NCBI RefSeq assembly: GCF_046105845.1
Contig: NZ_CP151004.1
DNA from: Escherichia coli
GTDB taxonomy: Bacteria; Pseudomonadota; Gammaproteobacteria; Enterobacterales; Enterobacteriaceae
Strand: one strand, 5' to 3'
DNA length: 64,000 nucleotides
The position numbers and the translations under genes are program-made. Of this stretch, positions 22,168 to 26,679 are shown piece by piece. The notes under the pieces are model-generated. The model was not told the origin of the DNA and made no database searches. It was given only the letters and a program-made list of their open reading frames with translations. How positions within the stretch are numbered: position 1 is the stretch's first letter; every line of letters starts with the position of its first letter.

Positions 22168-22422
22168 TCACAACTCGATTTCAATATCGCCTTTTGCCCG
22201 GCAACAACAGGGCAAAATTTCCCCCGGCTGAATAAAGGCTAACGGTTCGGCAATCCAGTCCACCTGGCCTGCAACAAGGCGCGTGCGACAGGAACCGCAG
22301 TAACCTTCGCGGCACTGGTACTCAACCGCCACATTGTGGGATTCCAGCGCCGCCAGAAGGGAAGGGTGTTCATCCTGGCACAGCAGTTGTGTGCCAGTGA
22401 TGCGCAGGGTAACGCGAGCCAT
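22168..22422 (-). CDS. yfaE: 2Fe-2S ferredoxin YfaE (NrdB diferric-tyrosyl cofactor maintenance)
   Basis: 84 aa; cysteine motif CREGYCGSCR; start overlaps nrdB stop (TGATG). Confidence 0.9.
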   Translation of the reverse strand: MARVTLRITGTQLLCQDEHPSLLAALESHNVAVEYQCREGYCGSCRTRLVAGQVDWIAEPLAFIQPGEILPCCCRAKGDIEIEL

Positions 22423-23552
22423 CAGAGCTGGAAGTTACTCAAATCGTCGGTGTCCACTTCCGAGTCAATCTGCCCGACCAGATAAGAACTGACTTCCACT
22501 TCCTGCGGAGCAACCTGCACGTTATCAGACACCAGCCAGGTATTGATCCACGGGATCGGGTTGGAGCGTGTCTGGAACGGCAGATCCAAACCGACTGCCT
22601 GCATACGGATATTGGTGATGTATTCAACGTACTGGCAGAGAATGTCTTTATTCAGACCAATCATCGAACCGTCACGGAACAGATAATCCGCCCAGTCTTT
22701 CTCTTGCTGTGCCGCCTGGACAAACAGGTCATAGCTCTCCTGCTTACATTCTTCGGCAATTTCCGCCATCTCCGGATCATCCGCACCGCTGCGCAGCAGA
22801 TTCAGCATATGCTGAGTACCGGTCAGGTGCAGGGCTTCGTCGCGGGCAATCAGGCGAATAATTTTGGCGTTACCTTCCATCAGTTCGCGTTCTGCAAAGG
22901 CAAAGGAACAAGCAAAGCTGACGTAGAAGCGGATCGCTTCCAGCGCGTTAACGCTCATCAGGCAGAGATACAGTTTTTTCTTCAGCTCGCGCAGGCTAAC
23001 GGTTACGGTTTTACCGTTAACGGTGTGGGTACCTTCGCCCAGCAGATGCCAGTAGCTGGTCATTTCGATCAGCTCATCGTAATAGCTGGAGATCCCTTCC
23101 GCACGTTTCTGGATCTGCTCGTTGGTGACGATATCATCAAACACAACGGACGGATCGTTAACGATATTACGAATGATATGGGTATAAGAACGAGAGTGAA
23201 TGGTTTCTGAGAACGCCCAGGTTTCGACCCAGGTTTCCAGTTCAGGGATCGAGATCAGCGGCAGCAGTGCCACGTTCGGGCTGCGACCCTGAATGGAGTC
23301 CAGCAACGTCTGATATTTCAGGTTGCTGATAAAGATGTGTTTTTCGTGTTCAGGCAGTGCCTGGTAATCGATACGGTCACGAGAAACGTCAACTTCTTCC
23401 GGACGCCAGAAGAAAGAGAGCTGCTTTTCGATCAGCTTTTCGAAGATGTCATATTTTTGCTGATCGTAGCGAGCCACGTTGACCGGCTGACCAAAGAACA
23501 TCGGTTCTTTCAGCTGATCATTTTTCGTCTGTGAAAAGGTGGTATATGCCAT
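22422..23552 (-). CDS. nrdB: Ribonucleoside-diphosphate reductase 1 beta subunit
   Basis: ATG at 23552 gives 376 aa ([22 protein letters not shown]...); the track ORF extends 5' into the REP region. Confidence 0.95.
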
Positions 23553-23575
23553 GAATGTGTCCTGTTGGGAGTTTA

Positions 23576-23690
23576 ATGCCGGATAAGGCATTTTACGCCG
23601 CATCCTGTGCCTGATGCGACGCTGGCGCGTCTTATCAGGCCTACAAATCCGAGCCGTAGGCCAGATAAGGCGTTCACGCCGCATCCGGCA
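23576..23690. repeat. REP/BIME cluster in the nrdA-nrdB intergenic region
   Basis: Inverted GCCGGATAAGGCxxxxACGCCGCATCCGGC-type units (REP consensus), at least two copies. Confidence 0.75.
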
Positions 23691-23698
23691 TCTCAAAA

Positions 23699-25984: not shown

Positions 25985-26061
25985 GTATGTCGTACCTGTT
26001 TTTGGAATTCTTTCCGCAATAGTTTCGTGCAGACTACCTGTAGTACGGGAAGCTGCTTAGA

Positions 26062-26108
26062 ACACTATATATAGGGGGTATGTTTGGGATTCACTGCAAG
26101 ATAGTGTG
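26062..26108 (-). promoter_or_regulatory. Two NrdR boxes upstream of nrdA
   Basis: Minus strand reads CCCCCTATATATAGTGT (26062-26078) and CACACTATCTTGCAGTG (26092-26108), matching the NrdR box pair as I recall it. Confidence 0.6.
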
Positions 26109-26137
26109 AAAATGGCCCTCTTGCAAGTGCATAACTT

Positions 26138-26146
26138 TGTGGATAA
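26138..26146 (-). promoter_or_regulatory. DnaA box upstream of nrdA
   Basis: TGTGGATAA on the plus strand is a perfect TTATCCACA on the minus strand. Confidence 0.55.
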
Positions 26147-26679
26147 CTCAGGAAGGAAAAAGTGGCTTTCGCGCACCTTAGGTCAGACAAGGTGTCCGGG
26201 AAAGTCAATGGGAAGAGAAAAATTTGTTAAAAATAACTGTTCGGCGATTTCTTGAACGGAAGAATAGGTTAGATAAATTGATATAGATGGTTTATTAATC
26301 TTTTGGCTAATGATTGCAAAAATTGATCTAAGCACGAATCATCGCATAATCTGATGTATCAGTTCTGGTCAATATATAAGCGAATGTAAGCGATTGTTGA
26401 TATCGAAATGGTTGTTTTCTCTTCGGTTATTGTTAAATGCGAAGCCATTTTGTTAATTTACCTTATATTATAAGAAAATTATTCATTACTTTAATTCAGT
26501 TTAAATATAACTAATATCCCTTAAGGTGATTAACTTGAATTATGACGCACTGATATTATTCATGAAATAATAACAAAATAGCCATTGCACGGGGTTGAAC
26601 AATTTACAAAAGAAAAATAACCCATATCGTATAATGCGATTAAATATGCCGTCTTATAGAAAATGATGGTCAGATTAAT

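Follow-up and report, generated by a model that had tools for sequence, protein, structure and literature searches.

The DNA immediately 5′ of nrdA in the 64-kb stretch of Escherichia coli sequence that we analysed (the window) is the leader and promoter of the chromosomal nrdAB operon, located at 25985..26150 on the minus strand. This control region is among the best-studied promoters of E. coli, and the feature itself is already known. Its complete layout very probably consists of a promoter, a double DnaA box and three NrdR boxes, of which box 1 and box 2 form the high-affinity pair and box 0 is an ancestral partner. What is mildly novel is the comparative finding that E. coli departs from the architecture typical of its family, its own version lying within a genus-specific replacement.

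Promoter, DnaA boxes and neighbouring sequences

Of 5426 complete E. coli genomes, 5423 match the 851 bases around the site across 80% or more of that segment. In the top match, CFSAN018748 (99.6% identical), RefSeq annotates nrdA, ypaB and yfaL at the same place. The product of nrdA carries the Pfam domains ATP-cone, Ribonuc_red_lgN and Ribonuc_red_lgC, with E values down to 1e-138, and yfaL is divergent from nrdA, starting at position 26680. The nrdAB promoter of E. coli K-12 is found at the same locus with the same neighbours (yfaL, ypaB, nrdA and nrdB). Alignment of the 286 bases 5′ of the nrdA ATG with K-12 MG1655 revealed two differences in the control region: one at 26115 in the promoter spacer and the other at 26028, just 3′ of box 2, where K-12 has T. 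All boxes, linkers and hexamers are unaffected. Because the control elements are identical to those of K-12, experiments conducted with K-12 apply directly to the window. The coordinates of all features are collected in Table 1. The original prediction had described the segment as the nrdA control region, and the sites it named are indeed situated in the promoter or 5′ UTR.

Table 1. Features of the nrdAB control region and its surroundings, given as positions in the window.
Feature	Position	Strand	Basis or remarks
nrdA, class Ia ribonucleotide reductase alpha subunit, 761 aa	23699..25984	-	ORF list, Pfam, RefSeq annotation
Antisense ORF, 625 codons	24197..26074	+	TAG stop inside box 1
nrdAB 5′ leader, about 107-110 nt	25985..26094	-	Preprint, assumed leader length, hexamer geometry
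NrdR box 2, GTACTACAGGTAGTCT, central AG	26031..26046	-	About +49..+64; 5/6 core positions (G at position 9)
NrdR box 1, CCCCTATATATAGTGT	26062..26077	-	About +18..+33; 6/6 core positions
NrdR box 0, TCACACTATCTTGCAG	26094..26109	-	Overlaps -10 and start site; published 16-mer; 5/6 core positions (C6)
Candidate -10, TATCTT	26098..26103	-	17 bp from TTGCAA; read from sequence, conservation
ypaB, annotated, 47 aa	26112..26255	+	RefSeq annotation; overlaps promoter
Candidate -35, TTGCAA	26121..26126	-	Read from sequence, conservation
Proximal DnaA box, TTATGCACT, 7/9 to consensus	26126..26134	-	Same orientation as distal box, 3-bp gap
Distal DnaA box, TTATCCACA, perfect	26138..26146	-	Motif scan; ChIP-seq double box
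Conserved upstream block with imperfect inverted repeat	26147..26255	-	Escherichia conservation, phage P7 homology
AT-rich divergent intergenic DNA up to yfaL	26240..26679	.	29% GC

The candidate promoter, TTGCAA-17 bp-TATCTT, agrees with the consensus at 8 of 12 positions. A sigma-70 scan with a 9-of-12 rule called neither this nrdA promoter in E. coli nor the candidate TTGTAC/TAGAAT in Salmonella, and since both promoters score under this threshold, the assignments rest on conservation and the literature. The nrdAB leader is reportedly 110 nt long (Tuggle & Fuchs 1986; EcoCyc), which would place +1 at 26094, 4 nt after TATCTT. The geometry of this hexamer predicts +1 near 26091, a difference of 3 nt towards TATCTT for the assumed leader. 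The 17-bp spacer falls within the 16-18 bp of sigma-70 promoters, whose starts lie 5-9 nt past the -10 element; with +1 only 4 nt past TATCTT, either the -10 assignment or the start is off by a few nucleotides. A literature search yielded no citable start site for nrdA, and a recent preprint describes box 0 as spanning both the -10 region and the start of transcription (bioRxiv 10.64898/2026.05.11.724285). Relative to either +1, the approximate positions are -52..-32 for the DnaA boxes, -15..+1 for box 0, +18..+33 for box 1 and +49..+64 for box 2.

The original prediction had included a perfect DnaA box, which is present and genuine but proved to be one half of a double box whose proximal member had been missed. 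The two 9-mers are arranged as TTATCCACA-aag-TTATGCACT and adjoin the -35 element, such that the last base of the proximal box is the first T of TTGCAA. Stringer, Fitzgerald & Wade (2024) report a 14-fold DnaA ChIP-seq peak at nrdA that was assigned to the 23-mer gTTATCCACAaagTTATGCACTt (PMC11317965), and this 23-mer is identical in the window (26147..26125). The DnaA ChIP that had been proposed as a check on the prediction is therefore available as a published peak on the identical double box. According to the same study, DnaA prefers box pairs separated by 2-3 bp, mutation of either box disrupts binding, and of the genome's 32 perfect single boxes only 13 are occupied by DnaA (PMC11317965). 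The nrdA boxes are such a pair, sharing the same orientation and lying within the 2-3 bp range. Perfect copies of TTATCCACA occur twice in the window, compared with 0.35 expected. The other copy (39501..39509) was taken as a chance occurrence and rejected as a site, as it resides inside a 1539-aa ORF, is without a partner and is not in the ChIP list.

The double DnaA boxes of polA, purH, DARS2, mioC and nrdD, which are likewise bound in ChIP-seq, consist of two equally oriented 9-mers with a gap of 2-3 bp, and in each pair one 9-mer is near-perfect. Unlike these five, the nrdA double box shares a base of its proximal member with the -35 element, which allows both activation and repression. A review presents the nrdA promoter as switched by DnaA-ATP: DnaA-ADP, or low DnaA-ATP, at high-affinity boxes activates, whereas high DnaA-ATP represses (PMC8203912).

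Further upstream, the conserved block contains an imperfect inverted repeat at about 26164..26206 (CTTTC-gcg-CACCTT ... AAGGTG-tccgg-GAAAG; coordinates set by eye). The published 45-bp inverted repeat 5′ of the DnaA boxes was not reported by the inverted-repeat finder. This block probably holds the element required for cell-cycle control of nrd. Fis, IciA/ArgP and H-NS also act on nrd 5′ of the promoter according to the literature.

Part of this region is shared with phages. Identity over positions 26108..26237 is 95.4% with phages P7 and SJ46, 82.6% with P1 and 78-90% with numerous P1-like plasmids. The shared stretch comprises the promoter spacer, the -35 element, both DnaA boxes and about 90-100 bp further upstream; it breaks off at the edge of box 0. 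The copy in P1 and P7 differs from that of E. coli in its setting, being located upstream of hot, without NrdR boxes and without a ribonucleotide reductase (RNR) gene downstream. GenBank entry M95666 labels the P1 region as an 'nrdA-like promoter' with a 'dnaA box', and the P1 genome entry NC_005856 notes similarity to E. coli DNA and two predicted DnaA boxes. We rejected the plasmid and phage homology as a new lead, since the P1 'nrdA-like promoter' has long been annotated.

Several other candidate features of the region were considered. No Rfam match to a leader or intergenic RNA element was obtained at E values up to 1, and the leader folds no better than shuffled sequences (z = -0.08). With neither a family match nor an unusual fold, we rejected an RNA element here; the palindromes are DNA sites rather than RNA structure. 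The 625-codon antisense ORF had been noted as reaching the binding sites and as probably non-coding, and this judgement holds. The ORF shares its codon register with nrdA, such that stops arise in it only from the sense codons TTA, CTA and TCA. The nrdA gene has no TTA, no CTA and four TCA codons, all four at codon 605 or later, and a median of two antisense-stop codons occurs in the first 596 codons of nrdA orthologues. A Pfam search of the ORF gave no match. On the basis of these stops in orthologues, the codon usage of nrdA and the Pfam result, we reject the ORF as a gene and view it as a codon-usage shadow of nrdA. The status of ypaB as a gene also appears doubtful from its sequence: E. 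albertii, E. whittamii and Escherichia sp. E1V33 carry an in-frame TGA at codon 18, and a Pfam search of ypaB found no match.

NrdR boxes and the high-affinity pair

NrdR boxes were scored as 16-bp partially palindromic elements at six core positions (C4, A6, A8, T9, T11 and G13). Two palindromes had been recognized in the original prediction. On the minus strand, 26062..26078 reads CCCCCTATATATAGTGT and contains box 1, the sole match to ACACWATATATWGTGT in 64 kb at up to three mismatches (2 mismatches observed; 0.47 matches expected). The second, 26092..26108, reads CACACTATCTTGCAGTG on the same strand and is a weak NrdR-like box; the published 16-mer for box 0 (26094..26109) agrees with the consensus at 10 of 16 positions and at 5 of 6 core positions. 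The predicted spacing of about 30 bp from centre to centre is reproduced with the original coordinates, and is 32 bp if the published 16-mers are used. Boxes 0 and 1 had therefore both been found, but box 2, on the far side of box 1, had been overlooked. The linkers measure 16 bp between boxes 0 and 1 and 15 bp between boxes 1 and 2, and all three boxes reside within 125 bp 5′ of the nrdA ATG.

A scan of the 64 kb for loose NrdR-like pairs with centres 31-32 bp apart returned just two, adjacent to each other at nrdA (26031..26077 and 26062..26109). One such pair arose somewhere in 64 kb in 100 of 300 shuffles. Since a lone pair is common in shuffled sequence, the significance of the finding rests on the placement at an RNR gene and on the phasing of three boxes. 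The box form, the 15-16 bp linkers and the position 5′ of an RNR operon are those of a tandem NrdR operator.

Boxes 0 and 1 constitute the classical pair: Rodionov & Gelfand (2005) reportedly predicted it, and Torrents et al. (2007) are said to have used the same pair. More recently, Rozman Grinberg et al. (FEBS J 2025), who renamed the upstream element 'box 0', determined affinities by MST on 57-58-bp probes (PMC12176259). In the presence of ATP-dATP, EcoNrdR bound the box 1 + box 2 probe with a KD of 113 nM, but its KD for the box 0 + box 1 probe exceeded 6000 nM (PMC12176259). The operators of nrdHIEF and nrdDG gave KD values of about 110-160 nM with ATP-dATP NrdR (PMC12176259). Older band-shift data cited in that paper point in the same direction, as mutation of box 1 abolished NrdR binding and mutation of box 0 was without effect. 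A 2026 preprint from the same group ascribes the failure of box 0 to the C at core position 6, with the C6A change raising affinity 10-fold, and also reports that NrdR cannot bind one box alone and needs two (bioRxiv 10.64898/2026.05.11.724285). The boxes and linkers of the published probes are found exactly at 26031..26109, with a single mismatch in a 5-nt flank (26028). The original prediction of paired NrdR boxes is thus borne out in that both boxes exist and form the classical pair, but the pair that EcoNrdR binds is box 1 + box 2. The identification of box 1 + box 2 as the operative pair comes from the in vitro work of one group.

Structural work has revealed that NrdR loaded with dATP together with ATP or ADP takes the form of a tetramer, which sits on two boxes and introduces a kink into the DNA at each. 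When only ATP is bound, the E. coli protein assembles into filaments in which its DNA-binding surfaces are buried. EcoNrdR also tolerates varied distances between boxes and is capable of higher oligomerization. The nrdHIEF and nrdDG operators resemble nrdAB in having two 16-bp partially palindromic boxes, a 15-bp linker and similar affinity. In nrdAB, unlike these two operons, the high-affinity pair is located wholly downstream of the start and a third, weak box lies over the -10 element.

An alternative reading is that the classical pair is the operator after all and that NrdR bound to boxes 0 and 1 occludes RNA polymerase at the -10 element. The regular spacing of these boxes (centres 32 bp apart, 16-bp linker) is what this reading would lead one to expect, and in Salmonella mutation of either classical box derepressed nrdAB. 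However, the affinity of EcoNrdR for the E. coli box 0 + box 1 probe is 40-50 times lower than for other operators, and core position 6 of box 0 is occupied by C instead of A. The derepression observed in vivo is hard to interpret, because mutations in box 0 also change the -10 element. Although the comparative data below add weight to the classical pair, we consider it unlikely that it is the operator through which E. coli NrdR acts, and we continue with box 1 + box 2 as the high-affinity pair.

Variation of the control region across Enterobacterales

A degenerate pattern in the N-terminal coding sequence of nrdA, which makes the search independent of promoter content, retrieved at least 120 Enterobacterales loci, and among the matches listed 115 upstream regions could be anchored on box 1. 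The box 1 core (C4, A6, A8, T9, T11, G13) is perfect in 113 of 113 species among the matches listed. At -32 from box 1, box 0 retains C4, A8, T9, T11 and G13 in 111-112 of these 113 listed species, and its position 6 is C in 106 of the 113. The Salmonella box 0 reads ACTCACCATATAGCGT and that of Edwardsiella CAACACTATCTTGTTG, each followed by N16 and then box 1. Edwardsiella, Hafnia and Serratia have the same box 0 core as E. coli, CACTATCTTG (positions 4-13). Judged by these alignments, the box pair named in the original prediction is conserved across Enterobacterales among the matches listed, and its resemblance to NrdR sites is hence not due to chance.

Box 2 is present only in Escherichia among the 115 listed loci. 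The 107 species among the matches listed that are without box 2 keep a perfect box 1 and an NrdR-like box 0 core.

Two cleanly separated arrangements of the control region were distinguished. In 16 loci among the matches listed, termed 'type E', a perfect DnaA box resides upstream, the promoter has the form CACTTGCAA-N17-TATCTT, and the -10 element lies inside box 0. No DnaA box was found downstream in these 16 listed loci. The Escherichia representatives of type E are three E. coli, E. albertii, E. whittamii and Escherichia sp. E1V33, and the others are four Edwardsiella, Hafnia, a Serratia, Leminorella, Pragia, Enterobacillus and one MAG. The 'type S' arrangement accounts for 97 loci among the matches listed, which are all other Enterobacteriaceae together with Erwiniaceae. 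Upstream of box 0 these loci have a candidate promoter, TTGTnC/TAGAAT. Their double DnaA box, TTATCCACAGagTTAgtCACA, has a 3-bp gap and begins 16 bp downstream from where box 1 starts, and in many of them an inverted TGTGGATAA follows further down the leader. Neither an upstream DnaA box nor box 2 was found in the 97 listed type S loci, and within Enterobacteriaceae only Escherichia has upstream DnaA boxes among the matches listed.

The type S loci, which include those of Salmonella, Klebsiella, Enterobacter, Citrobacter and Erwiniaceae, share with E. coli a box 0-like element 32 bp upstream of a core-perfect box 1. Unlike E. coli, they have their double DnaA box in the leader just downstream of box 1 rather than upstream of the -35 element, a different candidate promoter, and ubiG instead of yfaL directly upstream of nrdA.

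This difference in gene neighbourhood coincides with a break in homology. When the window is compared with Salmonella, Citrobacter and Klebsiella, homology is lost at 30592, where ubiG ends, and returns only at about 25986..26002, no more than 19 bp before the nrdA ATG. From these breakpoints, a segment of about 4.6 kb in Escherichia (~26003..30591), carrying yfaL and the whole nrdA control region, appears to replace the ancestral spacer between ubiG and nrdA. Within the genus, E. coli and E. albertii share about 93-95% identity over the block that extends from about 26255 as far as box 1, and the AT-rich DNA upstream of it is barely alignable.

These comparisons bear on the classical pair. 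Its position is conserved in the 113 Enterobacterales species among the matches listed, and the near-invariant box 0 positions include those of the 97 listed species whose box 0 does not overlap a -10 element. Because of this separation in type S, constraint on the promoter cannot explain the conservation of box 0. In addition, the non-Escherichia species among the matches listed are without box 2, yet NrdR needs two boxes; as the species without box 2 keep a perfect box 1, it can be argued that box 0 + box 1 work in vivo, at least elsewhere. Box 0 with its C6 may thus function together with box 1 in vivo, possibly also in E. coli, or the Escherichia operator may have shifted by one box.

A further possibility is an operator of three boxes, used in alternative registers (0 + 1 or 1 + 2) or occupied by two tetramers, with graded repression of both initiation and escape. 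This would accord with the phasing of boxes 0, 1 and 2 at 32 and 31 bp, which are the sole such pairs in 64 kb, with the conservation of all three boxes within Escherichia, and with the order-wide constraint on box 0 among the matches listed. The tolerance of EcoNrdR for varied box distances and its capacity for higher oligomers would also permit such an arrangement. However, the binding data for three boxes are limited to the observation that a box 0 mutation left the shift unchanged (PMC12176259), and NrdR on DNA has to date been observed as one tetramer occupying two boxes. We regard a three-box operator as very improbable, and box 1 + box 2 remains our preferred assignment for the high-affinity site.

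With regard to the origin of the E. coli arrangement, we tentatively propose, at not quite an even chance, that it is a genus-specific oddity and not the norm for enterobacteria, in which a replacement segment brought an architecture like that of Hafniaceae, Budviciaceae and a Serratia, together with a new box 2. If this is true, the NrdR operator of Escherichia would have shifted by one box; alternatively, the C6-containing box 0 would be a working low-affinity site that was missed with short oligonucleotides. Given the sharing of sequence with P1 and P7, phage-mediated exchange of the nrdA promoter block is conceivable.

A model for nrdAB control and its reach

DnaA occupancy and NrdR affinities have been established by others on sequence identical to that of the window, and the present analysis adds the positions, the identity to K-12 and the conservation; the mode of repression and any role of box 0 in vivo are inferred. 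In the model we propose, the sigma-70 promoter TTGCAA-17 bp-TATCTT would initiate transcription about 107-110 nt before the nrdA ATG. DnaA at the double box, when DnaA-ATP is low or in the form of DnaA-ADP, would aid RNA polymerase, and high DnaA-ATP would repress; the double box would in this way tie RNR synthesis to the replication-initiation cycle. NrdR would act through its high-affinity pair, box 1 + box 2, in the early transcribed region (about +18..+64). Given this location, repression by NrdR most likely takes effect at promoter escape or early elongation and not at recruitment of the polymerase. When ATP alone is bound, NrdR would be sequestered in filaments and repression would be lifted. 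Box 0 would be the ancestral partner of box 1, kept across Enterobacterales but contributing little to EcoNrdR binding in vitro.

The original prediction held that these sites couple RNR expression to dNTP and replication status. This view holds, as NrdR senses ATP and dATP and DnaA-ATP senses replication status. The nrdAB site links dNTP supply both to replication initiation, by way of DnaA-ATP, and to the dATP/ATP ratio, by way of NrdR. For annotation, the lesson is that motif-based 'paired NrdR boxes' at E. coli nrdAB repeat a prediction that has since been revised by binding data. The combined logic of NrdR and DnaA is conserved across Enterobacterales, and the wiring is not. If this is upheld, results obtained with E. 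coli nrdAB, in which DnaA is an upstream activator and repressor, would not be directly transferable to Salmonella and Klebsiella.

Conservation around the nrdA promoter

The leader of the nrdA mRNA tolerates some loss of sequence within Escherichia. E. coli IPCEC48 lacks a 13-bp stretch in the GCGGAAAGAATTCC region (window ~26002..26014), and E. whittamii has lost fewer bases from this stretch, at a different position, leaving its leader 9 nt shorter. Together, these sequence comparisons argue that part of the 5′ UTR between NrdR box 2 and the ribosome binding site is dispensable. Upstream of the DnaA boxes lies an imperfect inverted repeat, not picked up by the repeat finder. It may correspond to a published 45-bp inverted repeat that cell-cycle control of nrd is reported to require.

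The small gene annotated as ypaB is probably spurious. In three other Escherichia species its frame meets a TGA at codon 18, and an E. coli haplotype of ~90% identity has no such annotation. The window holds a second perfect DnaA box, TTATCCACA, which lacks a partner at a distance of 2-3 bp and is absent from published DnaA ChIP-seq sites; this copy is likely a chance occurrence. In CFSAN018748, the RefSeq genome with the best match, the annotation splits nrdB into two pseudogene fragments, both incomplete (L001 31..654), and the nrdB frame is unbroken in the window (22422..23696, minus strand). The split in the CFSAN018748 record is probably an assembly error.

Features of the window and phage or plasmid counterparts of window 26108..26237
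Feature	Coordinates	Strand	Context
Imperfect inverted repeat CTTTC-gcg-CACCTT ... AAGGTG-tccgg-GAAAG	26164..26206		highly conserved block
ypaB	26112..26255	+	opposite strand to nrdA promoter and DnaA boxes, overlapping both
Second perfect DnaA box	39501..39509	-	within 1539-aa ORF (36451..41070, +)
P7 counterpart	L126 401-529
P1 counterpart	L003 1501-1615
Plasmid p2 (strain EC19) counterpart	L002 3001-3115

An nrdA-like promoter in P1-family phages

The segment comprising the -35 element, both DnaA boxes and ~90 bp upstream also occurs in phages of the P1 family and in over 300 P1-like plasmids, at identities to the window of 78% to 95%. Over the ~29 bp that cover the DnaA boxes and the -35 element, the window, P7 and plasmid p2 are identical, and P1 has one base changed. 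The phage copy sits upstream of hot, which encodes a homologue of DNA polymerase III theta. This segment is already labelled ‘nrdA-like promoter’ in GenBank.

The nrdA upstream region outside Escherichia

In Salmonella, Citrobacter and Klebsiella, ubiG lies immediately upstream of nrdA (L055, L075, L043 and L062, the nrdA loci compared with window ~26003..30591). Homology to the window in these genera stops where ubiG ends (30592), restarting at most 19 bp ahead of the nrdA ATG (25986..26002, varying by genus). The positions of these breaks indicate that yfaL and the whole nrdA control region took the place of the ancestral spacer specifically in Escherichia.

Among the loci listed (L006-L125), 97 from non-Escherichia Enterobacteriaceae and Erwiniaceae carry a double DnaA box, TTATCCACAGagTTAgtCACA, in the leader. 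There it directly abuts NrdR box 1, being located 16 bp past the start of that box (for example, in Salmonella L055, Klebsiella L043 and Enterobacter L024), and an inverted TGTGGATAA often follows ~15 bp beyond it. Upstream of the promoter, all 97 of these listed loci lack a DnaA box. The abutting layout suggests interaction or competition between DnaA and NrdR at these leaders.
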